64,000 bases of DNA from a bacterium (GCA_900299345.1 OMJM01000031.1:14788-78787); one strand, 5' to 3'; numbered from the stretch's first letter, positions 8,391 through 38,028 are shown. A program made the numbers and translations. The notes: generated from the letters alone by a model not told the origin.

Positions 8391-8413
8391 GACCCCACTT
8401 TTCCTAAGAAAAA

Positions 8414-17542: not shown

Positions 17543-17548
17543 CCGTGT

Positions 17549-17965: not shown

Positions 17966-17968
17966 GGG

Positions 17969-21045: not shown

Positions 21046-22345
21046 CCGGCACCGCTCCACGGAACAGGTCGTAGTCTTCCGCCGATGTCTTGCGGCCATT
21101 CAGGCGCACATCGTCGCCAATCAATACAGATGCGAAGATCTTATAATCCGCGTCCGACTCCCCCGCAAACACCACAACCGGATCGTTGGGGAGACAATCC
21201 ACATCCCGATGAATGCTTGAGGAGGTGCTTACCGTGGAGCGAAGATAGGTCGAATCATAAAGCCACTTCTGAAGGTTGACGACCTCGAGGGGGTTAAACC
21301 GCACCGATTCGCGTTTGGGGTAAATCAAAGCGCGGGAACCGGGAAGCCACGCCGGTCCTCCGTAAGAGTTGGGGTAGACGTTCTCCGCAATCTTCGGTCC
21401 GTTGCCTTGAAGATCCGCAACTTCAACAAGATGCGCAGCCGAGTCAATCTTCAACTGCATCACGCCCAAATCCACCACGCGATCGTTGAGATCATTGGAA
21501 ATCTGGTAGGCCAGAAAATGTCCGTCGAAGGACCAGGATGGATGACTCTTGTTGTTGGGTACCTGATTGTTGAAAATGGAGATCTTTCGATCCAATTTGA
21601 AATCCATAAGCGCAATAGTGAACAGCCCGCGCTTGCGCGAACCGCTGGTGCGCATCGTGAAGGCGAGAAATCTTCCATCCGGCGAAAATGCGGGCAACAT
21701 CTCCTCACCGGGTGAATTGGTCAAGCGCTGAAAGGCACCACGCGGTTCCTGCTTCAACGGTTTGCCGTAAAAATCCAAGACACCCGGAACCAGGTAAAGA
21801 TCCCCTCCTCCGGAGCGTGCAGACACGAATACAAGCCCGTTGCCATCGGGTGTCCAGCGGGGAGAGTCATCCACTTCCGGATCGTAGGTGAGACGCGTGT
21901 AGGTCGCGCAGCCGACACAGCCAAGGTAAATGTCGTGATTGTTCACGCCTCCCGCACTGACGAAAGCGAAATACTGCTTGCCATCGTGCAACACAGGACA
22001 CCACTCCAACTCATCTTCGTAACCCTTGAAAAAATTGTCCTGCTCCTCGTCTTCTGCATTGACATCTTCAATTTGGGTGGAAGTGCGCCGCGGTGTGATC
22101 TGTTCCAATCCCTTGTCGCGCGCATCGTAGAGCCACAACTGGCGATTGTCGCGCACCTGACGGACGAAGGCCACATAATTCAGCCGATTGGGACATATCT
22201 TGGGGTGAAACAATTGGCCGCTGATTTTGGGATTATCGCTGGAAACGACCACCACTGTTTTCTGAACGTAAATGGTGCGTTGTGCCATCACCGTCGGCGA
22301 TGTCACAACCAGCAACCACAAAATGATCAGACGGACAAAACGCAC
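21032..22345 (-). CDS. TolB-like periplasmic beta-propeller protein (PD40/WD40-like repeats)
   Basis: Signal peptide MRFVRLIILWLLVVTSPTVMA; repeated PD40 motifs (DDSPRWTPDGNGLVFVS, PAFSPDGRFLAFT, HPSWSFDGHFLAY). Confidence 0.8.
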   Translation of the reverse strand: MRFVRLIILWLLVVTSPTVMAQRTIYVQKTVVVVSSDNPKISGQLFHPKICPNRLNYVAFVRQVRDNRQLWLYDARDKGLEQITPRRTSTQIEDVNAEDEEQDNFFKGYEDELEWCPVLHDGKQYFAFVSAGGVNNHDIYLGCVGCATYTRLTYDPEVDDSPRWTPDGNGLVFVSARSGGGDLYLVPGVLDFYGKPLKQEPRGAFQRLTNSPGEEMLPAFSPDGRFLAFTMRTSGSRKRGLFTIALMDFKLDRKISIFNNQVPNNKSHPSWSFDGHFLAYQISNDLNDRVVDLGVMQLKIDSAAHLVEVADLQGNGPKIAENVYPNSYGGPAWLPGSRALIYPKRESVRFNPLEVVNLQKWLYDSTYLRSTVSTSSSIHRDVDCLPNDPVVVFAGESDADYKIFASVLIGDDVRLNGRKTSAEDYDLFRGAVPDATR

Positions 22346-22368
22346 CGCCGTCCTCCCCCGCTCTGGAG

Positions 22369-23634
22369 TTACATCGCCGATAGGCTCTTAAGGTAGTCGT
22401 CGGCGCGACGGTTCTCGGCACGGTACTTGGCATTCTTGCCGAACCAAGTCTGGTAATCCTTCCAGCGCATCACGGCCTGTTGCTGGTAATACGCCTGTTT
22501 GTCGGCATCACTGGAGGTTTTATACATGCGCGTCCATGCCAGCGCCCAGAAATATTTCGTGCGCTGCATCACATCGTCGTACAGAGAGGGATCGATATAA
22601 CCTTGATCGCGGATCACAGCTTCGAAGGCCTTGTTGGCCTTGAAGTACTGTTTCAGCTCCACATAGCAAATGCCCAGATTCATGTTGGCCAAGGGGTAGT
22701 ACTTCTCGTATTCCGTCACGGTGAGAAACGCCTTGAGCGCGTCCGAGGCCCGATCAGAATGAAGCAAGGAGAGTCCGAGGATGAAATTTCCCTCCACGTA
22801 CTGATCGCGTACCGGATTGCCGCGTTGTTTGGTCGAGGGCTTGGGAAGCTGCGCCAGCAACTGACTGGCGTTCGCGTAATCCTGTTTTTGATAGGCGTCC
22901 ATTCCCTTCTTGAAAGCATCTGAGGCTACGGGCGAGGCCGCCGCAGCTTCTCCCGGAGCTTCCGCCGCCTTGGGCAACGAATTCATGGCCAGCTTGCTCT
23001 CATCCGAAAGCGAAGTGTTTTCCGGCATGGGTTGATCTTCCATCGTGAAATTTTTCGCGGGAGAAGAAGGAGCCACAGGAACAGGCGCGGGTGCCGGTGT
23101 TGGAGCTGCCGGAGCCACGGGCTTGGCTTCAACAGGTTTGGGAGTGGCGGCAACGGGTTGTGGAGGAGGAACAACCACCTTGGGTTCCGGTTCCGGAGCT
23201 GGCGCCACAGGAGCGGGCGTTTCGGGCGTGACAGGCTTGGAAGCAACGGGTTTTGGAGCTTCCACAGGTTGAACAGGTTTCGGAGCGGGAGCCGCGGCAA
23301 CGGGTTCCGGTTTGGCCTTAACGGGCTTTGACTCTTCGGGTGTCGCTGCCATGGTTGTTTGTGGCTTTGCAGCCGCTGGTGCCGAAGGATTTGCAATCGG
23401 TTTGGCGGGGGCCTCCGCAACCGTGGTTTCAGGAGATGCCGAAGCGGGTGGTGCCGCCGGCGCAGCCTCTGTCGTCGTATCCGGCATGGCAGCCGTTTCC
23501 GGGGCTTTGCCTCCGCTGCGTGATTTCCAGATCAACAAGCCAATGAGAAGAACCGCCAGGATCACCAACCAGAGGACGAGTTTCCCCTTTCCTTTGGGTT
23601 GTTCAAGCTGGATTTGTGTCGAGTCGTTCATGGT
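22369..23634 (-). CDS. membrane-anchored protein: N-terminal TM, long Pro/Ala/Lys-rich linker, C-terminal TPR-like domain (TolA/CpoB/TonB-like architecture)
   Basis: Start at MNDST (23634); TM LVLWLVILAVLLIGLLIW; about 200 aa of PAP/PKP/PVA repeats; C-terminal helical TPR-like region; no clear TonB C-terminal motif. Confidence 0.55.
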   Translation of the reverse strand, partial: TMNDSTQIQLEQPKGKGKLVLWLVILAVLLIGLLIWKSRSGGKAPETAAMPDTTTEAAPAAPPASASPETTVAEAPAKPIANPSAPAAAKPQTTMAATPEESKPVKAKPEPVAAAPAPKPVQPVEAPKPVASKPVTPETPAPVAPAPEPEPKVVVPPPQPVAATPKPVEAKPVAPAAPTPAPAPVPVAPSSPAKNFTMEDQPMPENTSLSDESKLAMNSLPKAAEAPGEAAAASPVASDAFKKGMDAYQKQDYANASQLLAQLPKPSTKQRGNPVRDQYVEGNFILGLSLLHSDRASDALKAFLTVTEYEKYYPLANMNLGICYVELKQYFKANKAFEAVIRDQGYIDPSLYDDVMQRTKYFWALAWTRMYKTSSDADKQAYYQQQAVMRWKDYQTWFGKNAKYRAENRRADDYLKSLSAM

Positions 23635-23645
23635 TGTTCCTTGTT

Positions 23646-24716
23646 TTATTTCTTGAGCCCTTCCACCCACAATATCATCAAACCTCCGCCCACGCACAGC
23701 ACACCAAGCGAAATCCAAAGGGGCAGATTGGTCCGGCCGCCGGAAGATGCGGATTTTAACGTCGAAACCACCGGATGTCTCGCATCTTCTTTGGCTCTTT
23801 CCCGTTCCTTGCCTTCCAGTTCTGAAAAGAAAGCTTGCTCGTACTCCAGTACCTTGTCAAAACCGGGAGAAGGTTTGGGAGGAAATTCCAGTACCGCCGC
23901 TTTTTTCTGTATGTCGTACATGGCGAGACGGGAGGAATAATTCCCTCCTTCGCGGGAAACGCGCACGTAAATGACTCCGGAGACATCCAACCGTTCCCCC
24001 AATCCAATCATGTTCTGAGGAGAAGGAGGCATCGAATACTTATTGATGCCCAGCGCCGAGAGCAACTCGGATAGCTCCGAAGCACTGATGGGCTGATAGC
24101 GTACCAACCCATTGACATGGGTGATGACCTGTTCCGAAAAAACCCGCGCTGGATAGGCATTTTCGCTGACGTCTATCAAAGCGAGACTTCGGCGCTGGCC
24201 CGCTGGTTGCAACAGCAACTTTTCTTTTTTCGCAGAGCGAACAAGACCATCCACCACACCCGTCCATGCACTGACTCCGCCTGGAACTGCGCCGGAAACT
24301 TCTCCGACCCAATTCCATGCAATGCGTCCCTCCGGGACGTAGAGCAGTTTGAGTGTCACTGCATAACGCATGTTTTCAATGGGCGAATAAGTCCCATACA
24401 GAACGAATCCGGCCTGCAAATAGCCTCCCGCATCAAAGCTGCATTGGGGATTGTTGCAGGTTTGATTTGCCGGAACACCGAACTCCGCAAGCTTCTTCAC
24501 CATTTCAGCCTTCGGAACAATCTTGAATCCGCCGTGCTCGACGAGGTTTTGTCTCAGGTTTTCGGAAGGTTCGGAGACGGTTTGATTGCCTCCCAATTCC
24601 ACCAAATCCAGAACTGCCATCGAGTTTGAAAAAATGTCCTGATTGGCGGGTAGTGCCCTGCCGAGGGAGTAGGCGATGAATCCGAGAAACACTCCCGCAG
24701 TGGGACGGAAAATCAT
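23646..24716 (-). CDS. hypothetical envelope protein with two tandem TolB-N/LpoB/CsgG-like alpha-beta domains and C-terminal TM anchor
   Basis: Internal repeat: MAVLDLVELGG...GGYLQAGFVLYGTY....YAVTLKLLYVPEGRIAW vs LALIDVSENAY...LDVSGVIYVRVS....LAMYDIQ; C-terminal TM LPLWISLGVLCVGGGLMILWV; family assignment tentative. Confidence 0.4.
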   Translation of the reverse strand: MIFRPTAGVFLGFIAYSLGRALPANQDIFSNSMAVLDLVELGGNQTVSEPSENLRQNLVEHGGFKIVPKAEMVKKLAEFGVPANQTCNNPQCSFDAGGYLQAGFVLYGTYSPIENMRYAVTLKLLYVPEGRIAWNWVGEVSGAVPGGVSAWTGVVDGLVRSAKKEKLLLQPAGQRRSLALIDVSENAYPARVFSEQVITHVNGLVRYQPISASELSELLSALGINKYSMPPSPQNMIGLGERLDVSGVIYVRVSREGGNYSSRLAMYDIQKKAAVLEFPPKPSPGFDKVLEYEQAFFSELEGKERERAKEDARHPVVSTLKSASSGGRTNLPLWISLGVLCVGGGLMILWVEGLKK

Positions 24717-24824: not shown

Positions 24825-24899
24825 GGCGACATACCCAAGTGGTAAGGGAGAGCTCTGCAAAAGCTTCATTCAGCGGTTCGAATCCGCTTGTCGCCTCCA
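24825..24899 (+). tRNA. tRNA-Cys (anticodon GCA)
   Basis: Cloverleaf by eye: acceptor GGCGACA/TGTCGCC, D-arm CCCA-AGTGGTA-AGGG, anticodon stem GAGCT/AGCTT with loop CTGCAAA (GCA), variable CATTC, T-arm AGCGG-TTCGAAT-CCGCT, discriminator T + CCA; 75 nt; lies on the opposite strand inside a 194-nt gap of the minus-strand gene array. Confidence 0.8.
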
Positions 24900-24910: not shown

Positions 24911-25492
24911 TTATTCCCCCTTGAGATCGACAAAAAGTTCCGCTGTTTTCTCCCCGAAAATCATAACGTTATATTCCTTGCTACGCTTCCCATCCACGAT
25001 GCGTATCGCCCGGGATCCCGACCGAATGTTATTGATGGTCAAGGGCGCCCCTTGGGTACTCCCCACATCCAAGCTGTCGATGTAAACGATGCAATTGCAT
25101 TTGATGGGATCCGTGGTGATCTTCAGGCTGCCGTATGGCATCACCAAACCTTTTTCAATGACCGTTGTCGAATCGGGCCAAATATTGACCCTTTGCCGGA
25201 TTAACTCTTCGCCGTTGAGAATCACCGTCAGCGTGTGCCTTCCCGTTTGGAAAGGCGTGTCAATGGGAGTTACCCCCAGATTTTCTCCCCCGAGATACGC
25301 CGTGGCGTTAGGTGGATTGGTGGCGATGTGGATTCTTCCTTGTTTCCCTCGTGGTGGAACAGAATCTCCATCCTGGGCAAGAACAACAACCAACGCCAAT
25401 CCGGATATGAACAACATCTTCCGAACCCAGCGACCAACGGGCATTCCCACGGGAACCTCCTTTGCCGGTATGCTTCTTCCTTTAATATGCAC
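24911..25492 (-). CDS. secreted PEGA-domain protein (two PEGA-like domains)
   Basis: Signal/TM MLFISGLALVVVLA; IHIATNPPNATAYLGGENLGVTPI and LKITTDPIKCNCIVYIDSLDVGST match the PEGA pattern (..s.P.gA.v.ldG...G.TP..). Confidence 0.6.
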   Translation of the reverse strand: MHIKGRSIPAKEVPVGMPVGRWVRKMLFISGLALVVVLAQDGDSVPPRGKQGRIHIATNPPNATAYLGGENLGVTPIDTPFQTGRHTLTVILNGEELIRQRVNIWPDSTTVIEKGLVMPYGSLKITTDPIKCNCIVYIDSLDVGSTQGAPLTINNIRSGSRAIRIVDGKRSKEYNVMIFGEKTAELFVDLKGE

Positions 25493-25501
25493 TGAAATCG
25501 A

Positions 25502-27370
25502 TTAAAAAGCCTGGCTCAGATCAAGAATAAATCTCTGTTGTGAGACATTTCTCGGGTCCCATGCGTAATCGATGCGGATATTGAACAATGAAAGAAAGAT
25601 GTAGCGCAGACCGGCTCCCACCGCCCTTCCCTGTCCAACCGGTGTAAGTTGTTGTCCCACCTCCCACACATTGCCATAGTCCGCAAAGGGTACCAGCTGC
25701 AAACCCAAAAAATATCGGAACGCGCCTTCCGATGAAACCCAGGAAGGCTGAAAAGGCTGAAATCGCAACTCGGCAGATGCCAGAAAGTAGGCTGGCTCAA
25801 TGTCATTGGAACAGATGGTATCGACGATTTCGGGACATACCGCACGCCAATCCTCACTGCGGATGCTGCGCGGTCCCCCTTGGAAAAATCGTTCCGAATT
25901 AATGCTCCCTTTCCCAAAAAAACGTCCACCGTCAAGCCGCAATGCCAGCACAAGCCAATGTCCCGCGGGAATGTATGCTGCATTCTCAGCTTCCAACCAG
26001 TTATGGCGGTTTCCAAAAAGGGAGAAGTGCCCGTTGTCAAGAATGGGGCCACCATTGCCCCATGTCAATGCCGTGCGCGTACCGCGCGCTGGATTCACAG
26101 CGTCATCGAGCTGTTCCATAAAAACCGAGTTGATGTAATTCTGTGTGAAATCCCGCTGACGTCCCGAATCCGCCTGCGTACTCTTGCCCACAAACTCGGT
26201 GCCACTGACGACGCGCAACCACGGAAGCAATTGCCGTGAAAGCTTGCTCTCATTGAACACCTCGAAGTTTCCATGGAACCATCCGCGGTTCAGGACAAGA
26301 TCTTGATCCTGAAACCAGTTGACGGTGAAGTTATTGTCGAAACGCACCGAGGTTCCAAAAAGCAGCGGAGCGCCGTAACCGAGAAACAGGGATTGCTTGC
26401 GTTGCGCCACTGTCAGGGTCACATGTCCTTCCTGCAAATGCCCACCCATATTGGCGTGCGACCATCCCGTAGAACCTCCCCATCCGTAGAGGTTTTCCCA
26501 AAAGGCGGAAAGTTCGATATCTCCCGGCTGCTTCTCTTCCGCGTTCAGCAGAAGGGCACTTCTTTGCCCCGAATCCATGGAGCTGTCACGAACTCGCACG
26601 AAATTGAAGGCGCGAGTGGATTTGAGTTTCCGCTCGAATGTATTGATATCCTTCAACGAAAGCGTGTCTCCACGCCGCAACGAAAAAAGACTCCGCATCA
26701 ATGCAGGGGATGTTTTTCCGGTCGACACACCGAGGCTGTCGCCCTCGCGCAACACGTGCAACATCAAGGTGTCAAAGACCAGGGCGGATCCCGGCTCCAC
26801 GCGAAAGGCCACGTCCACCGCCTTGTGCGCGGTATCATAAAAAAGCGATTCGGCCGCCTGCGCCTTGAGGAATCCGTGATCGCCATAGAACTTGAGCAAA
26901 TCGCGCCGGTCCTTGTACAACAAGGTCTTGTCGAATGGCTTGGAGGAACGGACGCGAAGATCAGTGATTTCATAGACTGGGTAGCTCCCTTGCGGCAGGC
27001 GTACCACCACAGAGTCAAAATGGTAGCGCTCCCCTTCTTCAATGCGCACCTGCACGACGGGATGTTTCCATTGGAGCGTATCCCCGCGCGGCGGGTGAAT
27101 GGAAACCCGTACGTCGAAATATCCTTCGTCGTGATAGGCCTCTCCCAAAAGGAAGGCCGCATCCTGCGCCCAAAAATCCCAGTCCTGATCCTGCCAGTCT
27201 GCAGTCTGATCCGGAGGTTCGATGAGGGACTCAACGCGACGTTCGCTGAACACATCCGCACCCGTGATGTGAAATACGGGATTGTTCGGCGCAGCACGGA
27301 CAGCACAAAGTGCGCAAAACAAAAATGCGGGGAACAGCAAGGTCCGGAATCGCAAAGCCTTCACCACCAA
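25502..27370 (-). CDS. Omp85-family outer-membrane protein (BamA/TamA-like; POTRA + D15 surface-antigen barrel)
   Basis: Signal peptide; C-terminal barrel with ..AVGAGLRYIFLSLFNIRIDYAWD....FILDLSQAF ending in aromatic Phe as in Omp85 barrels; start overlaps stop of TamB-like gene by 10 nt. Confidence 0.8.
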   Translation of the reverse strand: MVVKALRFRTLLFPAFLFCALCAVRAAPNNPVFHITGADVFSERRVESLIEPPDQTADWQDQDWDFWAQDAAFLLGEAYHDEGYFDVRVSIHPPRGDTLQWKHPVVQVRIEEGERYHFDSVVVRLPQGSYPVYEITDLRVRSSKPFDKTLLYKDRRDLLKFYGDHGFLKAQAAESLFYDTAHKAVDVAFRVEPGSALVFDTLMLHVLREGDSLGVSTGKTSPALMRSLFSLRRGDTLSLKDINTFERKLKSTRAFNFVRVRDSSMDSGQRSALLLNAEEKQPGDIELSAFWENLYGWGGSTGWSHANMGGHLQEGHVTLTVAQRKQSLFLGYGAPLLFGTSVRFDNNFTVNWFQDQDLVLNRGWFHGNFEVFNESKLSRQLLPWLRVVSGTEFVGKSTQADSGRQRDFTQNYINSVFMEQLDDAVNPARGTRTALTWGNGGPILDNGHFSLFGNRHNWLEAENAAYIPAGHWLVLALRLDGGRFFGKGSINSERFFQGGPRSIRSEDWRAVCPEIVDTICSNDIEPAYFLASAELRFQPFQPSWVSSEGAFRYFLGLQLVPFADYGNVWEVGQQLTPVGQGRAVGAGLRYIFLSLFNIRIDYAWDPRNVSQQRFILDLSQAF

Positions 27371-30300
27371 TTCCAGAATCTATAGTGATAGCGCAGGCCC
27401 ACCTGCTGTCGGACCTGACGCTCTTCTTCTACGTCGAGGTGATCGGGCGGGCGTGTTTCGACCGAAGCTTCAACCGTCCAGCGATCCTTGATTTTTTCGC
27501 GGGAGGCGCTATCGCTGACCAGTTCCTCCAACGGTGGACGATATTCAATACCGAGCTTTCCTTCCCACGGATTGGCAAGTTTTCTTTCGGGATAGTACCC
27601 GGCGCGGCCCTTGAGGCTCACGCGGTACTTCTCCTTTGTTTGAACTTCCACCGAGTAAGGCTCATAAGTGCTGCTGCTGTCTCCACCTCCTACGTGAGCA
27701 CCCAGTCCGCTCACCTGCGTGGATTGAATGAAACCGCCGGACACCGCCTTGATCCCCTGGCTTGAAAACTGACTCACCGTGGCGTCGATCAGGGCCGCCT
27801 TCACGTCGCCCTGTACGGAGGTGGCGCAGCCCTGCTTTGCCCAACTGATCACCACAGTGGGAGACACGGGTTGCGAAGTGGTACCCACAGTTTTTCCGCA
27901 GTCGGTGTCATAACTGAAATTCATCTCACGAAGTTCGCCGTTAAGCTTGATGTAAATGGGACACGTGCTGCGGGTATTCGGTTGGCAGTCGACAAGCACC
28001 TTCTTTTCTCCCTCCGCGTAGATCGTGCCCTCGTCCAGAGTGGCATTATCCCACTTGACTTCAAAGTCCCGCAAGTCATACACCTGACCCGAAAGGCCAA
28101 TTTCACCGCGTAATCCCGAAACCTTGCCGTTGAAGAGCGTATAGGGATAAACCCCCTTGATGTGGAGGTCGCCCAAAAAATTCAGGCGTAACACATCCGT
28201 GTCTACCCGGTTGTTGGAACCGATGGCTTCCACATCCACGTCAAGTTCCCAGGGTTTGGACCGATGAGCAGATCCACCACCCCCTTTGGAACGCTTAAAG
28301 ACATTGAGATAGCCCACCACCTCTTTGAAACCCACCCGGCGTTGAAAAAAGAAATCGCGTGCTCGAGTTCGTAACAGTAGTTTGGGAACTTCCACGGCAT
28401 CGGCAGGAGGTATGGACATCGCGAATATCAAGCCATCGAACCCACTTTGCATCTGCGAGCCGGAAACCGGCATCTGGAAAGTGCCAGACGCCACGCGTGC
28501 GTTGAGATTGAACGTTGTACCGGCCGTCCAATCAAGATGACCCGTAACTCCCCGGCCATGAATCTTCTGTCCTTGAGGAAGCGCCAGTCGCAATTCGTCA
28601 CCTTCAAACTGAAAGTTGACCGACACGGGAGCTTCTAAACGTGCCCGCAATTCCCCGGTGAGGCTTCCACCCTGTGAATTACGGATACGGAGGTTCCTCG
28701 AAGTCAATACACCCCGTTCAAGCGTCAGCCCGCCATCCACGCGTTGCGTGTCCAAAGCCGAAATATACAGCAGGCTCAATGTGCGCGATGAAAAAGCCGT
28801 CCCTTCCCAGATGTTTCCGGAAAGCGGCATTGACAAATCCCCTTGCAGGTTCACAGCATCCAGAAATCCGGCTTCACCGCCGAGCTTCGCGCGGCCCGCG
28901 GCTTTCAAATTGCCACGGAGCATTGTCCAGTTTTCAAATGCCCCGGCAAAATCAACGGTCAGCGGCCCGCTCCGCGCACCGATTGTAAGACGCGGACGTT
29001 CCGTTCCCAAGCCCAGCAGCACTGCGTCCAAGGTATCAGCCAACAATGGATGTTTCGTCGATGTGCTCGACGCCGAAATAAGCAGGGAGTCTCCCCGGCC
29101 ATTGAGTGAAACGTCGGAGACCTGCAGAATTCCCTCCAAAGCCGGAACTTGTAAATCTCTGGCCTTCAGATTACCAAGCCATCCGTTGGACGCATCGTAC
29201 TGGATATTGCCGTTCAGCGTCCCGTTCACGGGTACATGACCATCCGCCGAGGCCTTTGCCAACTCCAAAACTTCACCAATCTGAAGCTCGTCAGCATGCA
29301 GACGCCACGACTTCACGGAACCGGGATGCAAATGAGACAGTCCCGCCAATGAGCGTCCTTCCAAACTTATCTCTGCCCCTCCCGACAAACTCGCAGCTCC
29401 GGAGTGCAATTCGCCGTTGAAGATTTTCATTCTCTCGCGATCCCAGGAAAATTCAGCGCGCCCTTTCAGTGACTTTCCCTCGTAGGCAAACACCGCGCTC
29501 AAGTCTGATGCGCCGCCGCCTGAAACGGGATTCCATGCAAAGTGTCCATCGACTTCCGGATGAAACCGGGAAAGCCTGTGGAGAGGTCGATAAGGGAAAT
29601 AACCCGCCTGTAAATTTTCGGCGTCCACCTCGATCGAATCAGGAACCTGCATTCTGAACCGGACACGGCCGAATTCAGCATGTGACAGATCGAATGCGAG
29701 CTTCGGACCCTTAAATCCAGGATAACGCGCCCAGATCACATGGCCTGACCCCTGGAACACCTGTCCATCGTGATAGATGCGGCTCGAACGCAAGAAGTAC
29801 CCGGCCGAATCGATATTGATGTCCTGTACCAGTTCCACGCTGTCCGCTACGGCCCCATAAGCCCTGGTGTTGCGCAGCCGGGACACCACATGCACGTTGT
29901 TCTTTTCCCAGACCCCTTCGATTTTTCCGGAATGAAAAGCCACATTGGTATCCGTCCAAATCACAGCCCAGCGTTCGCCCGGTGACACATCGCCTGAAAA
30001 TTCCAGACGCTTGGCATGTTCACCGTTCCAGCGAAGCTCGACCCGCGAACTATCGGACGAAACAACATTTGCCTCGGCAATCAGACCCTGTTCGAGACGC
30101 AGGCTCGGGATTTCAAATTCGATGGGCAATTCGTGGGTGCCGACACGCCAGTAAACCCCCTTGGTGCGCATGGCAAGCAACGCTCCGTACTTTTTCCAGT
30201 CGGGCTTTACAAGCCATTCTGGAGGGTGCCTCCATTGGCCTTCAAGATGAAGCTGCTGGCGCAGACTACCCTGGCCCGAAAGGCGCACTTCGCCTCCGAT

Positions 30301-31173
30301 GGAATCGCACACGAGTTTCAAGTGCCACAGCGCGGACTCCAAAATATGGAACGAATCCGTATGAGCCGTGAAAGCCAATGAAAACTTTTCACGCTTCCAA
30401 TCAATCTTGCCGCCGACTTTTACACCGGTAATTTCAGGCGCATTCCGCAGCCATTTTGCTGGAAGCCAGCGACGCGGGCTGCCGAGGGCGACATACAGAG
30501 AATCTTGTCCATGAGGCAAAAATTTGTTCTCGTGTTCGCCGACGACTTCAACGCTGTCGCCGGCATGCGATGCCTGAAGACGGTAATGCACGCTCTTTCC
30601 GTACCATCGAACCGCCAGCGTCAGATCCGCCTCCAGGGGCGGCAAGGCCGAATCTGCAAACACCCCTCTCACATGAAAACGGCCGTTCAATCCCCATGGA
30701 CCCGAACTGCTCCATCGTGCTCTTTCCACAGATATTGCGGGCAATGATTCTGGGACGACATTCAATATGCGCCATTCGACGGATACCGGAAGCGGAAACC
30801 GGAGGGCCGGGAACTCCGTGACGGGTTTACCCGTTTTAGGGCGCGGGACAACACGCACGTTTGCGGAATCAAGAACCACGTGGATTTCCGCGGGCCGCGA
30901 TCCGAAGTGAACCCACCCCAAGAGATGCACGGAGGCTTTCGATAGAAACACTTTTTCATAGGGTGACTCGGCAGCCCCGGAATCCACTTCAACGGCCAGC
31001 AACGGGGAAATATGTACGCCGTGAAACTGGAGTTTCCACTCACCCACTTGCCGTTCGGTAGCCAGCACATGCTCGGCCGCCTTGGCAAGCAAAAAAACCG
31101 CAACGGGAGTCCCTATCAGGATCAGTGCGAGACCGATCCAGACCATGCGGAACATCCTGTGGAATAACACCAT
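27361..31173 (-). CDS. tamB: TamB-like translocation-and-assembly-module protein (AsmA-like/DUF490 family), 1270 aa
   Basis: N-terminal TM anchor MVWIGLALILIGTPVAVFLLA, very long beta-rich periplasmic body, C-terminal region ..SVETRPPDHLDVEEERQVRQQVGLRYHYRFW typical of the TamB C-terminal DUF490 domain; genomic coupling to Omp85 gene. Confidence 0.7.
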   Translation of the reverse strand: MVLFHRMFRMVWIGLALILIGTPVAVFLLAKAAEHVLATERQVGEWKLQFHGVHISPLLAVEVDSGAAESPYEKVFLSKASVHLLGWVHFGSRPAEIHVVLDSANVRVVPRPKTGKPVTEFPALRFPLPVSVEWRILNVVPESLPAISVERARWSSSGPWGLNGRFHVRGVFADSALPPLEADLTLAVRWYGKSVHYRLQASHAGDSVEVVGEHENKFLPHGQDSLYVALGSPRRWLPAKWLRNAPEITGVKVGGKIDWKREKFSLAFTAHTDSFHILESALWHLKLVCDSIGGEVRLSGQGSLRQQLHLEGQWRHPPEWLVKPDWKKYGALLAMRTKGVYWRVGTHELPIEFEIPSLRLEQGLIAEANVVSSDSSRVELRWNGEHAKRLEFSGDVSPGERWAVIWTDTNVAFHSGKIEGVWEKNNVHVVSRLRNTRAYGAVADSVELVQDINIDSAGYFLRSSRIYHDGQVFQGSGHVIWARYPGFKGPKLAFDLSHAEFGRVRFRMQVPDSIEVDAENLQAGYFPYRPLHRLSRFHPEVDGHFAWNPVSGGGASDLSAVFAYEGKSLKGRAEFSWDRERMKIFNGELHSGAASLSGGAEISLEGRSLAGLSHLHPGSVKSWRLHADELQIGEVLELAKASADGHVPVNGTLNGNIQYDASNGWLGNLKARDLQVPALEGILQVSDVSLNGRGDSLLISASSTSTKHPLLADTLDAVLLGLGTERPRLTIGARSGPLTVDFAGAFENWTMLRGNLKAAGRAKLGGEAGFLDAVNLQGDLSMPLSGNIWEGTAFSSRTLSLLYISALDTQRVDGGLTLERGVLTSRNLRIRNSQGGSLTGELRARLEAPVSVNFQFEGDELRLALPQGQKIHGRGVTGHLDWTAGTTFNLNARVASGTFQMPVSGSQMQSGFDGLIFAMSIPPADAVEVPKLLLRTRARDFFFQRRVGFKEVVGYLNVFKRSKGGGGSAHRSKPWELDVDVEAIGSNNRVDTDVLRLNFLGDLHIKGVYPYTLFNGKVSGLRGEIGLSGQVYDLRDFEVKWDNATLDEGTIYAEGEKKVLVDCQPNTRSTCPIYIKLNGELREMNFSYDTDCGKTVGTTSQPVSPTVVISWAKQGCATSVQGDVKAALIDATVSQFSSQGIKAVSGGFIQSTQVSGLGAHVGGGDSSSTYEPYSVEVQTKEKYRVSLKGRAGYYPERKLANPWEGKLGIEYRPPLEELVSDSASREKIKDRWTVEASVETRPPDHLDVEEERQVRQQVGLRYHYRFWNWW

Positions 31174-31332
31174 CTACCCGCGCTGCCCTGTTCGCTAAAA
31201 ACCTCAAATTACTTAAGTGGCGAAGTCCCCGTACTGTATCCATGCTGTGGGCGCGTGTCTGGAATGGCTTTTTATGCTAATTTAAAGCACCCTCACAATC
31301 CAAAAGTTGTTACGCACAAAAAGGCAAACCTT

Positions 31333-33810
31333 ATGAAGAAACGCTTGCTTCTGCTCCCCATGTTCGTCGCGGTGGCTGCCTGTAATGGAGGCTTGGGCGA
31401 CAAAGGTCACATGATCGCCCGCATCGATGGAAAGCCCTTCACGGAAGAAGAACTGGATTTGCGGTTGAACACGCTCAGCGATGAACAGCGCGAGGCAATT
31501 CTTGCCAATCCGGAAGAAAAGCGCAACAACTTCGAAAACATCCTGCGCACCCGCCTCTATGCCTTGGCGGGACAACGGGGGGATTTCGCAAATGTGGACT
31601 CCCTCAAGCGGCGTCTCGCGCTGATCGATCAGCGCGTGATGACGCAGTATTATTTCGACGCTTATATCAACGAAAATGGCGGCCAGTCCCGCAAGGATCT
31701 GGAAACCTATTACCGTGCCAACCCCTCAAAATTCACTGGCGACTCCGGCAAGGTTCTTCCTTTTTCAAAAGTGTCCGCACGCGTGGCGGATTCCCTGCTA
31801 TTGTCGCACGCCAACATTGACTCGTTTTATCAGGCCAGTCGTAACATATACGTGGAAAGAGCCAACTGTCTCGTTTCCATCATCCAGACGTCAAAATTGA
31901 AAGACGCCCAAGCCGCTGTGAAGGCCATTCAAGGAGGAATGTCTTTCGGAGATGCCGCTGCCAAATTCTCCACCCACGCCACCAAGATCAGCCAGGGCAA
32001 ATTGGGGAAAGTCGTCAAGGGTGAAGGCAATTACGACATCGGTTCCACCGTCACGGTGGACAGCCTGTTGTTCAATCCCGAAACACGGCTGAAGGAAGGT
32101 CAGGTTTCCGGGCCAATCCGCAAGGATTCTGCCACATTCGTGCTGGTCCGCTCTGATTCTCTCCAGGAGGAAAGATTGCCTCCTCTGGCAAGCGTCGGCG
32201 TGCGCGTGCTGAGCGACTATGTCCGCACTTACAAGGAGCAACTCAGCCAAAATGCGATGGCTGCTCTCAAGGCAAAATACAAGGCGAAAACGGTCTCCCC
32301 CTACAAGAATCCGAGCGAAGCGGACATCAAATCCTACTACGAACAAAACCAGAGCGACTATGAAAGCCCGGAAACGTTTGAGCTTTACCACATCGAAATC
32401 TCAAACAAGGACAAGGTGGCGAAATCGTTCAAGTCCGTGAAGGATTTGAACGGCTTCAAGGCTCTGGCGGCAAAGTTTTCCGAGAATAAGATGACCAAAG
32501 CCCAGAGCGGATACTTGGGGGTAATTAAACGTGACTTCTGCTTACCCTACGGAGTAGGCATGTTGCCGGAACTTTTCACGGCTCTGGACACGATTCGCGA
32601 AGGCAAAATCAGCACGCCGGTGGAAAGCCCCGACACCCAGAAATGGCATTTCTTCTGGCTGGTCAAAAAGGAACCTCGCAAGGTCAAAACCTTGGAACGC
32701 GTCCACGCGTTGGTCATGTCCGACATGGCCGTCAACAGATTGGCCCAGATCAAGCCCACCGATACTCTGGCAGTCTATGGCGACGGCAAGGTCCTGCGCG
32801 AAAGTGATGTGATTTTCTTGAAGGACGAAATCCCCCCGCAGATGCGCGAACGTTACACGCGGGACAATCTCGTGGAATATCTCCTTACTTGGAGACTCGC
32901 CACAGATGAAGCCATGGCGCTTGGTTTGACCGATGAAAAACGCCTTATCGCACTGCGCCTTCAAAATGAGGATGGCTACTGGAGCCGCCTATATCAAGAC
33001 TCAATCATGACGAGATCCTACGAAGAGGACAGCGCCGCACTCGCAAAACTTTACAAGGAAAAACGCGGACTGTTTACCAAGGACAGCGCCGACAACGACT
33101 GGCATCGATACTCGCACGACATTGCGGGTTATCTGATGCTGACCCCGCAAGATTTCAATATCGAATACTACACCAACCCGGAACGTTACCGCCGCGATAC
33201 GGTCCTCCCTGCGCTTTCGTCGGTCATGTTCGAAGTGTTCCAGAACCTTAAGTCTGCCGCATTCCAGCGCCTGGATGAAAAAATCCTCAAAACCCTCAAA
33301 ACCCGGTTTGACGTGCAGATCGTAGATGGAAGCCTGAACCAACCCTCACTTGAGCCAGTGGGTGAAACCTACAAGAAGGCGCAAAATCTGCACTACGATC
33401 GCAAATTGGATCAGGCCCTGGGCCTTTACGGCAAGCTCCGCGATCAATTCCCGGCACGCACGGGACTGCAAGACTCGGTCTGTTTCGGAATCGCACAGAT
33501 TTATATCGAACAGGAGCGCTACCAACAGGCCTTGGCGGAATACCGCAGGGTCAGCTACCTCTATCCGAACAGTGCGAACAATTACAAGGCGATGTTCATG
33601 GTTGGGTTCATCCAGTCCGAACATCTCAAGAATGATTCCGCCGCCGTGCAATCTTTTGAGAGCATGCTGGCAAAATATCCGAATACCGACCTATCCGACG
33701 ATGCGGATTGGATGATCCGGAACATCCGCAGTGGCGGGAAACTGATGCCTGTTCTGGAAGGCGATAGCGCTTCAACACCCGCAGATTCGACAAGTGGCAA
33801 GAAGAAATAA
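31333..33810 (+). CDS. lipoprotein peptidyl-prolyl isomerase/chaperone (SurA/PpiD-like) with C-terminal TPR-like domain
   Basis: Lipobox LLPMFVAVAAC; SurA-N-like region; parvulin-like segments (..KAIQGGMSFGDAAAKFS.., ..KALAAKFSENKMTKAQSGYLGVIKRDF..); C-terminal TPR-like helices (YKKAQNLHYDRKLDQALGLYGKLRDQFP..YIEQERYQQALAEYRRV). Confidence 0.7.
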   Translation: MKKRLLLLPMFVAVAACNGGLGDKGHMIARIDGKPFTEEELDLRLNTLSDEQREAILANPEEKRNNFENILRTRLYALAGQRGDFANVDSLKRRLALIDQRVMTQYYFDAYINENGGQSRKDLETYYRANPSKFTGDSGKVLPFSKVSARVADSLLLSHANIDSFYQASRNIYVERANCLVSIIQTSKLKDAQAAVKAIQGGMSFGDAAAKFSTHATKISQGKLGKVVKGEGNYDIGSTVTVDSLLFNPETRLKEGQVSGPIRKDSATFVLVRSDSLQEERLPPLASVGVRVLSDYVRTYKEQLSQNAMAALKAKYKAKTVSPYKNPSEADIKSYYEQNQSDYESPETFELYHIEISNKDKVAKSFKSVKDLNGFKALAAKFSENKMTKAQSGYLGVIKRDFCLPYGVGMLPELFTALDTIREGKISTPVESPDTQKWHFFWLVKKEPRKVKTLERVHALVMSDMAVNRLAQIKPTDTLAVYGDGKVLRESDVIFLKDEIPPQMRERYTRDNLVEYLLTWRLATDEAMALGLTDEKRLIALRLQNEDGYWSRLYQDSIMTRSYEEDSAALAKLYKEKRGLFTKDSADNDWHRYSHDIAGYLMLTPQDFNIEYYTNPERYRRDTVLPALSSVMFEVFQNLKSAAFQRLDEKILKTLKTRFDVQIVDGSLNQPSLEPVGETYKKAQNLHYDRKLDQALGLYGKLRDQFPARTGLQDSVCFGIAQIYIEQERYQQALAEYRRVSYLYPNSANNYKAMFMVGFIQSEHLKNDSAAVQSFESMLAKYPNTDLSDDADWMIRNIRSGGKLMPVLEGDSASTPADSTSGKKK

Positions 33811-33862: not shown

Positions 33863-35281
33863 ATGAACCCACTTTTACAACGTTCTTTGCTTAAAAAACT
33901 CGGGTTTGCAGCGGTTGGGGTCACGTTGGGCGTTTTGCTGCTCAACAGTTGCGACGACATCGGATATAGCCCTTACGCACCGGTCATCACCTACAAGAAG
34001 GTGGCCATTTCTGCCTTCAAAAACACGGCCATTCTTCCCGATTACGTGGTGGCTTCGGGTGACGGGGTGATCGACGGGTATTCCGTCAGCCCTGCCCTTC
34101 CGACGGGTCTGACATTGGATGCAAAAACCGGCACCATCTCGGGCACTCCTACCGCCGGAACCCCCTGTCAGAACTACGTCGTCTCCGCATCTGGCCCCAG
34201 TGGCCACGATACGTCAACCGTAACGATCTGTGTGAGTGACAGCGCGAACACCTATCGTGTCAACAAAGGCCCTTTCCCGCCCTTCATTACTTACAAACGG
34301 CTTTCGATTGAGGCCGTTAAAAACAAGACTATTCGTTCGGATACTGTGATCGATACTACTGGCGGCGCCATTACCAGTTATTCAGTTACTCCCGCACTGC
34401 CGGCGGGCCTGGCCTTGAACACCGCCAACGGCGTCATTTCCGGAAAACCCACCACCACGGATACTGCAGCGCGCCTCTACACGATTACCGCAACCGGCCC
34501 CAGTGGCACGGGTGACGCCCACATAGGAATTTGTATTGCCCCCGACAGCCTGCATCCTTGCGTTGCCGATGTGCGTCCGCCCTCCGTCTATTATAACGAA
34601 AGCTTCATCTGGACGACTCCTGGAGTGGCGCTTGTACCCGACAGCGCCAACTCGTTCGCAGGACGGATTACCAAGTTTACCGTGTCTCCCGCATTGCCGG
34701 CAGGCATCAGCCTGGATTCCGTCAAAGGCATCATTTCCGGAACCCCGACGGCTACTGTCACGGCGCGTGATTACCACGTTCTGGTGACCGGACCATTCGG
34801 CATTGACTCGTCACAAATCATCTATATCGCTGTTTTCGACAACAATATTCCGCAAGCCCTGTTGAAAAAAGGAAAGGCGCGTTTCAGCGGTGTTTGTTCC
34901 GGCTGTCACGGTCAATTAGGTTTGGGTGCACCGCCTGATGTTCATCCGGGTCGTGGCGCCACTCCGCCACTGGCGCATTCCGACTTCCTGATGGCCAATC
35001 GCCATCGTCCCATCCGCATCCAAATGATGGGACTTCCCAATGCCATCGACTCCTTCGCGCCCATTATCGTGGCCGGTGACACATATGATTCTCACATGCC
35101 CTCCGTCGGAGGAAATGATTCAGACATTGCCTCTGTACTGACCTTCGTCCGAGCCATGTTCAATGGAGCCACGGATTATATAAGCGTCAGTGAAGTGGCT
35201 CATGTCCGTGACAGCGTGGCCGCATTGGATTGTGATCGCGATGGCCAGCGTGACGGTTGCGGTATCGACACGACGCACTAG
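33863..35281 (+). CDS. lipoprotein with four He_PIG (putative Ig) repeats fused to a C-terminal mono-heme cytochrome c domain
   Basis: Lipobox LLLNSC; four repeats of ..Y(S/T)V(S/T)PALPaGL.LD...G.ISGTPT.. (He_PIG signature); single CSGCH heme-binding motif followed by HMPSV (possible Met ligand). Confidence 0.7.
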   Translation: MNPLLQRSLLKKLGFAAVGVTLGVLLLNSCDDIGYSPYAPVITYKKVAISAFKNTAILPDYVVASGDGVIDGYSVSPALPTGLTLDAKTGTISGTPTAGTPCQNYVVSASGPSGHDTSTVTICVSDSANTYRVNKGPFPPFITYKRLSIEAVKNKTIRSDTVIDTTGGAITSYSVTPALPAGLALNTANGVISGKPTTTDTAARLYTITATGPSGTGDAHIGICIAPDSLHPCVADVRPPSVYYNESFIWTTPGVALVPDSANSFAGRITKFTVSPALPAGISLDSVKGIISGTPTATVTARDYHVLVTGPFGIDSSQIIYIAVFDNNIPQALLKKGKARFSGVCSGCHGQLGLGAPPDVHPGRGATPPLAHSDFLMANRHRPIRIQMMGLPNAIDSFAPIIVAGDTYDSHMPSVGGNDSDIASVLTFVRAMFNGATDYISVSEVAHVRDSVAALDCDRDGQRDGCGIDTTH

Positions 35282-35321: not shown

Positions 35322-35397
35322 TGGAGCGGATTATCGGACTCGAACCGACGACCATCTGCATGGGAAGCAGAAGCTCTACCAACTGAGCTAAATCCGC
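35322..35397 (-). tRNA. tRNA-Gly (anticodon CCC)
   Basis: Reverse complement folds as GCGGATT-TA-GCTC-AGTTGGTA-GAGC-T-TCTGC-TTCCCAT-GCAGA-TGGTC-GTCGG-TTCGAGT-CCGAT-AATCCGC-T-CCA; 76 nt. Confidence 0.85.
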
Positions 35398-37027: not shown

Positions 37028-37999
37028 ATGCTTGAACTGGCATTCCTCATCAATCCCATTTCCGGCGGCGGAGTGGGGAAACAGGTCTACCAAAGGCTGG
37101 GAGAAATCCTGGACAGTTTTGGCATGGATCGTGCGGCGTGGACGGCAGAACTCACCGATGTGCAACGCCTCTCGGAACAGACCGAGGAATTGCTGCTTCG
37201 GTCACAGACCTTGATTGCGGTGGGTGGCGACGGCACCATCGGCATGGTGTTGGACTGTGTGAGACGTTTGCGCCCCGCGACCGCCATCGGACTTATCCCG
37301 TTGGGAACCGGAAACGATCTTGGGCGGGCTTTGGGAATCTATCGCGTCTACAACGCAAAGGGATTGATCGCCTGCCTCAAACAATTGCTCAAAGCGCCCA
37401 GCCAACCTTTTGATTTGTGGGACGTCGGTGGAAAGGCGACACTCGTATCCTACCTCAGCGCCGGTCTCGACGCGGCGGTGCTCCGCGATTTCGATCGGGC
37501 CCGCAAAAAAGGAAGCATCCCGGGTGGCGCATTTGGCAACAAGCTTTATTACGCCCGCGCATTTTTCAGGCGTATGAACTACCAGTTACCGATCGGTTCC
37601 CGCGTGCGCATCGAAACTTCCGAAGGCTGGATGGAGCTTCCTTTGGAGGAACGCAGAGTGTTTCTGGCGGCCAATATCAACTCTTATGCGGCAGGAGCGC
37701 ACCCCTTTGCCGGTGGAAACTTTGATGATGGGGTGCTTGAAATCGCCGTATTCGCCTCCATCTGGAAATACGCCTTCGTCACACTCGGAGCGCGGGGATT
37801 TCCATTCCTAGGAAAGTGGATGCGCCGCAAATTACGGCGATATCACGCCAAAAACGTGGTTCTCTCGCTCCCTCCTGAGACCCCACTTCAGATTGACGGT
37901 GAGGATTTCACCGCCAAGACGGAATCTCCATTGACCGTATCCTTTGCCGCGCACGTGCGCCTGCTGGATTTGCGCTCCTCCTTCTACGCCCTTTTTTGA
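37028..37999 (+). CDS. diacylglycerol/lipid kinase catalytic-domain protein (DAGK_cat, YegS/BmrU-like)
   Basis: INPISGGG, LIAVGGDGT and LIPLGTGNDLGRALG motifs. Confidence 0.8.
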   Translation: MLELAFLINPISGGGVGKQVYQRLGEILDSFGMDRAAWTAELTDVQRLSEQTEELLLRSQTLIAVGGDGTIGMVLDCVRRLRPATAIGLIPLGTGNDLGRALGIYRVYNAKGLIACLKQLLKAPSQPFDLWDVGGKATLVSYLSAGLDAAVLRDFDRARKKGSIPGGAFGNKLYYARAFFRRMNYQLPIGSRVRIETSEGWMELPLEERRVFLAANINSYAAGAHPFAGGNFDDGVLEIAVFASIWKYAFVTLGARGFPFLGKWMRRKLRRYHAKNVVLSLPPETPLQIDGEDFTAKTESPLTVSFAAHVRLLDLRSSFYALF

Positions 38000-38028
38000 A
38001 TACGGGGGGTGTACATTTACCCACTCTT

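Follow-up and report, generated by a model that had tools for sequence, protein, structure and literature searches.

A tamB-omp85-PEGA operon of Fibrobacteria encoding a proposed outer-membrane module

Which envelope function is encoded where a tamB-like gene runs into a gene of the Omp85 family and a gene for a PEGA-domain protein follows? The question is raised by a locus of a Fibrobacteria MAG, within a sequence of 64,000 nucleotides that was analysed as a whole and is called the window here. On the minus strand the order is tamB-like gene, overlapping Omp85 gene and two-PEGA-domain gene, and a gene for a lipoprotein with a PPIase region and a TPR tail departs divergently from the other side of the tamB start. 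All four genes lie where the first-pass annotation had placed them (Table 1). We propose, with a probability of roughly 0.55, that the unit is a TAM-like trans-envelope module to which the PEGA protein belongs as a periplasmic accessory peculiar to this lineage, and that this module works alongside a classical BamA-Skp system.

Genes and borders of the operon

The tamB-like, omp85 and PEGA genes form one real three-gene operon, which encodes a membrane-spanning TamB bridge, its Omp85 partner in the outer membrane and a small secreted PEGA protein. This unit lies between a divergent promoter region and a convergent tRNA-Cys gene.

Table 1. Features of the operon and its borders; positions are counted from the first nucleotide of the window
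Feature	Position	Strand	Description
tamB-like gene	27361..31173	-	1270 aa; N-terminal membrane anchor, C-terminal DUF490/TamB domain; Pfam PF04357
Omp85-family gene	25502..27370	-	622 aa; signal peptide, 3 POTRA, 16-strand barrel; AlphaFold2 (AF2) model
PEGA gene	24911..25450 (longest ORF to 25492)	-	179 aa from GTG 25450; Pfam PEGA, AF2 model
Convergent tRNA-Cys(GCA)	24825..24899	+	ARAGORN and Rfam; marks 3' end of the three-gene unit
Divergent intergenic region, tamB / PPIase-TPR	31174..31332		contains 11-nt motif ATGCTAATTTA; six-locus alignment
PPIase-TPR lipoprotein gene, divergent	31333..33810	+	825 aa; Pfam Rotamase_2 and YfiO

The product of the first gene had been called TamB-like with an N-terminal transmembrane anchor, and the profile search bears this out. 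Pfam PF04357 (TamB) matches residues 828-1266 with 44.3 bits (cut-off 22.4, E 1.9e-11), the match spans profile positions 3-381 of 381, and a hydrophobic N-terminal segment, MFRMVWIGLALILIGTPVAVFLLA, is read straight from the translation at residues ~10-32. The protein combines the features of TamB/AsmA-like proteins, namely a DUF490 domain, an N-terminal anchor, a length of about 1200-1300 aa and an adjoining Omp85 gene. In all related loci the tamB ortholog immediately precedes the Omp85 gene. In the window the pair overlaps by 4-10 nt, and its spacing in relatives is comparably tight. An overlap had been reported before with a size of 10 nt; the overlap itself stands, while its size is 10 nt if omp85 starts at TTG 27370, 7 nt with GTG 27367 and 4 nt with GTG 27364, the last of which gives a classic GTGA overlap with tamB.

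For the PEGA gene, the GTG at 25450 is most likely the start. It is preceded at 5 nt by the Shine-Dalgarno site AAGGAGG, the ENA gene call of 179 aa is 100% identical to the resulting protein, and the ortholog alignment supports the same start. This start leaves 51 nt between omp85 and the PEGA gene, in place of the 9 nt given by the first-pass annotation.

On the other side of the operon, the intergenic region holds an invariant 11-nt motif at 31274-31284 (plus strand), which precedes the PPIase ATG by 49 nt. This motif occurs once in the window versus 0.01 times expected, and a six-locus alignment of the region shows no conservation apart from the motif and the surroundings of the start codon. 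A sigma-70 scan gave nothing above chance. The gene that starts behind it encodes a protein with the lipoprotein signal MKKRLLLLPMFVAVAAC and the lipobox VAAC. Pfam finds Rotamase_2 with 87.9 bits and YfiO with 26.7 bits (cut-off 25); NCBIfam BamD TIGR03302 reaches 46.8 bits, below its cut-off of 81.4, and against the PDB a profile of the TPR tail scores 30.5 bits for CpoB, level with 29.2 bits for BamD/YfiO. Judged by these profiles, the lipoprotein appears to join a SurA/PpiD-like parvulin PPIase region to a C-terminal BamD/CpoB-like TPR domain. The gene lies upstream and divergent in type-1 loci (those orthologous to the window) wherever upstream sequence exists, so that the earlier description of a divergent SurA/PpiD-like lipoprotein with a TPR tail can be kept: its domains are real and it is linked to the module in relatives.

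Fold and family of the Omp85 protein

The POTRA domains of the Omp85 protein, left uncounted in the first-pass annotation, number three in the AF2 model (mean pLDDT 87.6). They cover residues of about 32-111, 117-192 and 198-279 and are followed by a barrel of 16 strands (residues 283-620); Pfam POTRA matches with 40.1 bits, above cut-off. Three POTRA domains on a 16-strand Omp85 barrel are the architecture of TamA and fall short of the five POTRA domains of BamA. All top 50 structural matches of the model in Foldseek are BamA or TamA, which are also the best matches. The NCBIfam profiles place the protein in none of the named families: BamA TIGR03303 gives 81 bits versus a cut-off of 297.15, TamA NF047950 20.8 versus 625, and TamL NF052279 34.5 versus 400. 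A conserved lipobox, which would mark a TamL lipoprotein, was not found in 38 members of the Omp85 family. Searched against the PDB, the family profile scores 101 bits for POTRA3-5 of BamA, the only part of BamA to which it aligns, and 61 bits for TamA. Thus the protein is an Omp85 of the insertase type, and its sequence appears nearer to BamA than to TamA. We also considered a two-partner secretion transporter of the TpsB/FhaC type and rejected it: the protein has three POTRA domains and not two, its sole N-terminal helix is the signal peptide where a plug helix would be expected, the structural matches are BamA and TamA, and the PEGA protein has no TPS domain in Pfam or NCBIfam.

The affinity to BamA raises the possibility that the Omp85 protein is the principal BamA of the lineage and that it forms, together with the SurA/BamD-like lipoprotein, TamB and the PEGA protein, a reduced BAM core with three POTRA domains, comparable to the single BamA plus TamB of Spirochaetes. 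The profile scores given above would fit, as would the joining of a SurA-like PPIase to a YfiO/BamD-like TPR in the adjacent lipoprotein, and JGI annotates these Omp85 proteins as BamA. However, the BamA equivalog score is far under its cut-off and only three POTRA domains are present, the TPR tail fits CpoB as well as BamD, and each genome carries 2-3 paralogous Omp85 genes coupled to tamB. The bamA-skp-lpx context is absent as well, no skp or lpx gene having been found near the Omp85 gene within the window. Liu et al. 2025 infer a Bacteroidota-like BAM complex for those other FCB phyla in which BamG and BamH occur, Fibrobacterota among them (PMC12611786). In F. succinogenes the OMP85 gene FSU_2654 adjoins the OmpH/Skp gene FSU_2655 (PMC6851124), and because that species has a separate Omp85 gene beside skp, we read the unit as TAM-like and not as the housekeeping BAM. 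A reduced BAM core is therefore unlikely. F. succinogenes, from which alone the evidence for a classical BamA comes, belongs to a different order from the MAG lineage.

Conservation and role of the PEGA protein

The first-pass annotation had described the third gene as encoding a secreted protein with two PEGA domains, and this description holds. Pfam PEGA PF08308 matches two stretches of the protein with 56.5 bits (cut-off 20.8), and the AF2 model (pLDDT 88.3) consists of two beta-sandwiches. The ortholog alignment shows a Sec signal peptide, the invariant motif VPPRGxxG at the mature N-terminus and no lipobox. Since the model contains no barrel and the C-terminus (...VDLKGE) lacks an aromatic end residue, the protein has no obvious beta-signal. 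It is a small, soluble, Sec-exported tandem beta-sandwich. A structural search with the PEGA fold returned generic Ig-like matches, none of them informative, and the role of the protein is therefore read from synteny and conservation.

The PEGA gene is, by comparative synteny, more than an incidental neighbour. It lies directly downstream of the Omp85 gene in 23/27 informative type-1 loci. Even a distant member of the Fibrobacterales, with 25-28% identity in Omp85, keeps the series TamB→Omp85→PEGA, followed by different genes. A PEGA HMM run over about 1.3 Mb of related loci gave no matches other than the PEGA gene beside the type-1 pair. In orthologous loci the identity to the proteins of the window is 41-67% for PEGA, 32-67% for Omp85 and 24-51% for TamB, and by this measure the PEGA protein is at least as well conserved as its two partners. 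Among the related loci scanned, 15 have the same convergent tRNA-Cys gene behind the PEGA gene. In one subclade (L010, L011, L015, L016) the TamB-Omp85 pair and the PPIase gene are kept, the PEGA gene is absent and the tRNA-Cys gene directly follows omp85; the PEGA gene must therefore be dispensable there or have been relocated. Related genomes carry one or two further TamB-Omp85 pairs without a PEGA gene: 20 assemblies contain the window-type pair plus a paralogous pair, and one assembly contains three pairs.

These data bear on two further explanations. The PEGA protein could be a periplasmic protein that is functionally unrelated to TamB-Omp85 and is held in its place by operon inertia within one class. 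It has neither a functional annotation nor an informative structural match, 50-150 nt lie between its gene and omp85, with no overlap, and one subclade has lost the gene but kept the TamB-Omp85 pair. Yet the adjacency persists in the Fibrobacterales relative, where all other neighbours have changed, the related loci scanned show no copy of the gene beside the paralogous pairs or at any other site, and with the convergent tRNA-Cys gene behind it the PEGA gene ends the tamB-omp85 unit. Mere inertia is quite improbable. That the PEGA protein is instead a dedicated cargo, as the first-pass annotation had suggested, gained no positive support and is very doubtful. In this reading it would be a surface protein or resemble S-layer proteins, and TamB-Omp85 would export or display it like a two-partner or TAM substrate. 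The Pfam family description likens PEGA domains to S-layer (surface) proteins, VPPRGxxG behind the signal peptide might be a recognition tag and the gene strictly accompanies a single one of the paralogous pairs. But the protein is barrel-free, ends without an aromatic residue and shows no TPS domain in Pfam or NCBIfam, its Omp85 neighbour differs from two-partner-secretion transporters, and one subclade retains the machine without PEGA. The PEGA protein also changes at most as fast as the machine proteins, an unusual trait in a cargo exposed at the surface. We consider a periplasmic accessory that fills the slot of Skp the most likely role of the PEGA protein.

Proposed function and known systems

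In the TAM-like module that we propose, the TamB/AsmA-like protein would be anchored in the inner membrane and span the periplasm, and the Omp85 protein, whose gene is translationally coupled to tamB, would act as the outer-membrane dock for the C-terminal domain of TamB, on the model of TamA-TamB and Borrelia BamA-TamB. PMC11361582 describes binding of the Borrelia TamB C-terminal domain to the POTRA domains of BamA, and in PMC12800296 TamAB is assigned phospholipid transport and OMP insertion. The module may serve outer-membrane biogenesis by delivering phospholipids and/or assembling some of the beta-barrel proteins, most likely beside a classical BamA-Skp system and not in place of it. The small PEGA protein would be its lineage-specific periplasmic accessory, the PEGA gene taking the operon slot held by skp in TamB/BamA/Skp clusters or by the gene for a SurA-N-like protein in Nitrospirota. 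The neighbouring SurA-like/BamD-CpoB-like lipoprotein is a probable helper.

The order tamB before omp85 had been regarded as a notable inversion. It is the usual order outside Proteobacteria, and the only new element of the operon is its conserved PEGA partner. Spirochaetes, Negativicutes and "many other bacterial phyla" are known from the literature to have a TamB/BamA/Skp arrangement (Heinz 2015, PMC4494059; Antunes 2016, PMC5007114), and we found tamB→omp85 also in Nitrospirota loci and in the nearest outgroup Omp85s of ~900-950 aa. With the TamB/BamA/Skp cluster of Spirochaetes, Negativicutes/Halanaerobiales and others, the operon shares tamB, an omp85 gene with a BamA-like sequence and a small exported periplasmic protein. 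Selkrig 2012 is reportedly among the sources for this cluster. Those clusters have a single canonical BamA with five POTRA domains as their Omp85 protein, and skp in third place. The operon described here instead encodes one of several paralogous Omp85 proteins, with three POTRA domains, and ends with a gene for a PEGA beta-sandwich protein that has no relationship to Skp.

Closest in Omp85 sequence outside the family are the TamB→Omp85→SurA-N-like clusters of Nitrospirota and related MAGs, which have the same order and likewise a small exported third protein. They differ in about 350 extra N-terminal residues of Omp85 (more POTRA domains) and in a third gene that is SurA-N-like or TPR/peptidase, not PEGA. 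Proteobacterial TamA-TamB resembles the unit in that an inner-membrane TamB/DUF490 protein is encoded beside its own dedicated Omp85, which has three POTRA domains and a 16-strand barrel, and probably also in its coexistence with a separate BamA. In contrast to that system, in which tamA lies upstream of tamB, tamB precedes omp85 here and in all relatives, the Omp85 protein is no ortholog of TamA and has a sequence closer to that of BamA, a third gene belongs to the operon and 2-3 paralogous pairs occur per genome. TamL-TamB of Bacteroidota/Chlorobiota also stems from the FCB superphylum and pairs TamB with a partner from the Omp85 family. TamL, however, is a lipoprotein encoded upstream of tamB, whereas the members of the window family have ordinary signal peptides.

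The presence of several TamB/AsmA-like bridges per genome recalls TamB, YhdP and YdbH of E. coli, which are redundant in phospholipid transport. This analogy suggests that the Fibrobacteria paralogs could be partly redundant trans-envelope lipid conduits, each of them, unlike those of E. coli, having its own Omp85 partner.

The three-gene unit and its boundaries

On the minus strand, three consecutive open reading frames encode a TamB-like protein, an Omp85 protein and a small PEGA protein, and a gene for a PPIase-TPR lipoprotein runs divergently from them. All four genes of the first-pass annotation are real and their parts had been correctly identified, as judged from the reading frames and Pfam matches; only the start codons need minor correction. 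The 1270-aa protein begins with a hydrophobic anchor and matches the TamB profile above the cut-off over the full profile length, in agreement with its earlier description. The stop codon of tamB is spanned by the TTG-GTG-GTG that opens the omp85 frame (…TGG TGG TGA), so that the genes overlap by 10, 7 or 4 nt depending on the start codon; the proposed overlap thus stands, whereas its size of 10 nt is only one of three values. Translational coupling of tamB and omp85 is likely. The PEGA gene indeed directly follows omp85, but at a distance of 51 nt instead of the 9 nt assumed before, since the most probable start codon is GTG 25450, which lies five bases 3' of AAGGAGG. An identical sequence was called independently as a gene in ENA, and the ortholog alignment likewise supports the resulting 179-aa product.

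Features of the window discussed in the text
Feature	Position	Strand	Evidence or remark
TamB-like protein (1270 aa)	27361-31173	-	Pfam TamB/DUF490 (PF04357), residues 828-1266, 44.3 bits (cut-off 22.4)
Omp85 protein (622 aa)	25502-27370	-	Pfam POTRA, 40.1 bits
PEGA small protein (193 aa, longest ORF)	24911-25492	-	Pfam PEGA, two stretches, 56.5 bits
tRNA-Cys(GCA)	24825-24899	opposite, convergent	11 nt beyond the PEGA stop codon
Divergent lipoprotein	31333-33810	+	Pfam parvulin-type PPIase domains, TPR, YfiO 26.7 bits (cut-off 25)
Motif ATGCTAATTTA	31274-31284	+	49 nt 5' of the PPIase-TPR start codon
Conserved block 3' of tRNA-Cys	13844-24716	-	
He_PIG protein (472 aa)	33863-35281	+	three He_PIG Ig-like domains, weak C-terminal cytochrome c motif (CSGCH)
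tRNA-Gly(CCC)	35322-35397	-	
DAGK/YegS-type lipid kinase and second SurA-like PPIase	37028-39054	+	PPIase: SurA_N_3 and Rotamase
LolA-like protein	44646-45464	-	
Tandem pair of large paralogs (778 and 834 aa)	6054-11056	+	DUF7133, weak HEAT-repeat matches

The convergent tRNA-Cys gene also lies 3' of the PEGA gene in 15 of the related loci scanned, so that the unit comprises exactly three genes. Scans for sigma-70 promoters (2 found, 4.1 expected) and intrinsic terminators (12 found, 10.0 expected) stayed at chance level, and Rfam identified three tRNAs and nothing else in the window. Assembly GCA_003455335.1 encodes the exact Omp85 protein of the window, and the relatives are annotated as Fibrobacteria or Fibrobacterota MAGs.

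Conservation of the trio and its relatives

A scan of 185,579 species-representative genomes yielded 80 loci, in which ORFs were called and searched with the window proteins and a PEGA HMM. Clustering of the Omp85 sequences separated orthologs of the window locus (type 1, n = 28) from paralogous pairs of TamB followed by Omp85 (type 2, n = 25, and the rarer type 3). Type-1 loci share an array in which the PPIase-TPR gene is transcribed divergently from tamB. On the tamB side, tamB, omp85, the PEGA gene and the convergent tRNA-Cys are followed by genes for a 356-aa protein, two TPR proteins flanking a TolB-like beta-propeller, and an Opp-type ABC transporter. In the window, the 356-aa protein is weakly LpoB-like, the PD40 beta-propeller reaches 79 bits against TIGR02800 (below cut-off) and the transporter comprises SBP_bac_5, a permease and a fused ATPase.

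The PEGA gene lies directly 3' of omp85 in 23 of the 27 type-1 loci that extend at least 700 bp beyond omp85. The four exceptions (L010, L011, L015 and L016) form one subclade with an Omp85 identity of 51-54%, to which L012-L014, too short to judge, also belong. In this subclade the genes for PPIase-TPR, TamB and Omp85 are kept, as is the tRNA-Cys, which directly follows omp85; the whole downstream block is absent and a THUMP-type methyltransferase gene is found there instead. Short ORFs after omp85 in this subclade were considered as divergent PEGA genes and rejected: they have no PEGA HMM match even at E ≤ 10, overlap the conserved tRNA-Cys and resemble non-coding translations. Throughout the scanned loci, the PEGA HMM matched no gene other than the one after type-1 omp85. 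Identities to the window proteins are 41-67% for PEGA, 32-67% for Omp85 and 24-51% for TamB, so that the constraint on PEGA is at least equal to that on its neighbours.

When 1.84 billion representative proteins were searched exhaustively with the profile, the family of 570-680-aa Omp85 proteins reached down to ~235 bits. A distant member comes from a cluster named 'Fibrobacterales bacterium', on whose contig a TamB-domain gene overlaps the Omp85 gene (608 aa) and a PEGA ortholog (141 bits against the PEGA HMM, N-terminal motif IPERGGTG) follows in the same order. The genes after this trio are unrelated to those of type-1 loci. Thus, conservation extends to the trio rather than to the larger block, and the PEGA gene is no incidental neighbour, as its recurrence in type-1 loci and on the Fibrobacterales contig indicates. 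A widened profile homolog search returned the same protein set, without entries from Fibrobacter succinogenes.

The upstream genes of type-2 and type-3 pairs exceed the Pfam TamB threshold, and these loci contain neither a PEGA nor a PPIase gene. Types 1 and 2 occur together in 20 assemblies, for example at two distant positions of the OY970309.1 chromosome, and one assembly carries three pairs. Paralogous Omp85s of loci L030-L064 (e.g. L057 on OY970309.1, L046 on CANKII01 and L063 on CAYNXV01) are 33-41% identical to the window protein. In nine of the 25 type-2 loci (L006, L042, L045, L046, L048, L049, L060, L061 and L064), omp85 is directly followed by a gene for a YihY/BrkB-family inner-membrane protein of ~300 aa, which may be a different third partner of that paralog.

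The order tamB-omp85 had been considered noteworthy because it reverses the canonical tamA-tamB order. However, a 'reversed order of TamB-BamA' was already described in Spirochaetes by Heinz et al. in 2015 (PMC4494059), TamB/BamA/Skp synteny is likewise published by Antunes et al. (PMC5007114), and the outgroup loci share the order, so that no novelty resides there. The next-best matches to the Omp85 family are Omp85s of ~900-950 aa, and the two examined on their contigs each have a TamB gene directly upstream. Nitrospirota loci encode TamB, Omp85 (~890-940 aa) and a SurA-N-like protein of 175-190 aa in this order; their TamB measures 1309-1310 aa in nine loci and scored 175 bits against PF04357 in the one tested (L077). 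A 756-aa Omp85 match lies in a classical bamA-skp-lpxC context without TamB. The window order is therefore the common non-proteobacterial one, in which a small chaperone-like protein of the periplasm usually takes the third slot. The Nitrospirota outgroup comprises L075-L085; in two further loci, L090 and L091, tamB also directly precedes omp85 and the third gene encodes a TPR/Peptidase_MA_2 protein.

Identity of the Omp85 protein

The AlphaFold2 model of the Omp85 protein (38 homologs used, mean pLDDT 87.6) shows three beta-alpha-alpha-beta-beta POTRA units (residues ~32-111, 117-192 and 198-279) and sixteen barrel strands (residues 283-620). In a Foldseek search of the PDB, chains of BamA and of TamA scored similarly. 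Single-sequence PDB searches gave no match for Omp85 or TamB and only chance-level matches for PEGA; the PDB sequence matches of Omp85 came from the family profile, which aligned with Neisseria BamA at 101 bits, over POTRA3-5 and the first strands of the barrel, and with the best TamA match at 61 bits. All NCBIfam scores were below the cut-offs, namely 81 bits for BamA (cut-off 297), 34.5 bits for TamL (400) and 20.8 bits for TamA (625). An identity as TamL was ruled out because the family has ordinary signal peptides without a lipobox. In architecture the protein thus corresponds to TamA, yet it is neither a TamA or TamL ortholog nor a canonical BamA with five POTRA domains. Its conserved loop-6 motif (residues ~498-520) is GGPRSIRS, with S505 nearly invariant in the family, and not the usual (V/I)RG(Y/F), while the Fibrobacterales relative keeps RSVRGY. 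C512 and C520 are also nearly invariant and suggest a putative loop disulfide.

The unit could alternatively be the BAM core of its lineage. Neither a second Omp85 nor a classical bamA gene occurs in the window or in the retrieved Fibrobacteria loci, the stretches that this search covers. However, F. succinogenes S85 has a separate OMP85-family gene, FSU_2654, next to the OmpH/Skp gene FSU_2655 in a proteomics list (PMC6851124), and Liu et al. (2025) identify FSU_2654 as the BamA of F. succinogenes and infer a Bacteroidota-like BAM complex for the other FCB phyla in which BamG and BamH are present, Fibrobacterota among them (PMC12611786). Together with the three POTRA domains, the BamA score below the cut-off and the several TamB-coupled Omp85 paralogs per genome, this makes a BAM core unlikely and favours a TAM-like accessory module over a housekeeping BAM.

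The PEGA protein and the divergent lipoprotein

The PEGA family alignment shows a Sec-type signal peptide without conserved cysteine, a mature N-terminus with an invariant VPPRGxxG and two PEGA domains. In the AlphaFold2 model (pLDDT 88.3) the first ~36 residues are disordered and followed by two beta-sandwiches. The model contains no barrel, the C-terminus (...VDLKGE) lacks an aromatic end residue, and a fold search returned nothing beyond generic matches of Ig-like, pilin-like and CBM-like type, without functional lead. Due to these features and a conservation at least equal to that of the machine genes, the suggestion that the protein is a dedicated cargo is not supported. As it appears soluble, well conserved, periplasmic and encoded at the operon end, the role of an accessory or chaperone-like subunit would fit better.

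The divergent protein was rightly described as a SurA/PpiD-like lipoprotein with a TPR tail. Its start at ATG 31333, backed by the intergenic alignment, yields a lipoprotein signal peptide (…VAVAAC), and the PPIase region is similar to PpiD, SurA and PrsA by NCBIfam models and in weak PDB matches. The profile of the TPR tail scored 30.5 bits with CpoB and nearly the same, 29.2 bits, with BamD/YfiO, so that 'BamD-like' is only suggestive. Wherever upstream sequence exists, the PPIase-TPR gene is tied to type-1 tamB, either directly or across an inserted STAS/anti-sigma cassette. In L002, L004 and L005 the cassette has four genes, which encode two STAS proteins, a HATPase of the anti-sigma type and a short 'Bac_export_2' protein resembling FlhB. 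Within the divergent spacer, which is otherwise unalignable, the 11-nt motif ATGCTAATTTA is invariant in six loci; we take it to resemble the Bacteroidota-type -7 promoter element TAnnTTTG.

TamB-type bridges and their Omp85 partners hold a central place in current research on the delivery of lipids and beta-barrel proteins to the outer membrane. To our knowledge, nearly all mechanistic data on them come from Proteobacteria and Borrelia. New here are a Fibrobacteria-specific family of TamB-coupled Omp85s with three POTRA domains in two to three copies per genome, which would be a candidate for an origin independent of TamA and TamL, a conserved PEGA protein that takes the Skp slot next to one Omp85 copy, and the linked SurA-like/TPR lipoprotein. 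A description of a TamB-Omp85-PEGA unit was not found in the literature searched. We tentatively propose, with a probability of about 0.3, that an ancestral TamB/BamA/Skp unit was split in Fibrobacteria into two to three trans-envelope bridges in parallel, with a separate three-POTRA Omp85 dock for each TamB paralog, and that the type-1 bridge gained a periplasmic tandem-PEGA subunit, which would bind via its invariant N-terminal VPPRGxxG tail in Skp's place alongside a SurA-BamD/CpoB fusion lipoprotein. In that case, no beta-sandwich accessory subunit would have been described for a TAM-type machine before PEGA. If PEGA is a subunit, the unit offers a testable example of an exchange of accessory factors (Skp, SurA-N-like, PEGA) between phyla in TAM/BAM-type machines, and F. 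succinogenes is a culturable relative in which its role could be tested.

Further genes were observed around the unit. In the closest relatives (L001 and L007) the He_PIG gene likewise adjoins the PPIase gene, and the position of the tRNA-Gly beyond these two genes is kept in several related loci. Envelope-biogenesis genes lie nearby: the second, shorter SurA-like PPIase gene begins within the lipid kinase gene, and a LolA-like gene is found further on.
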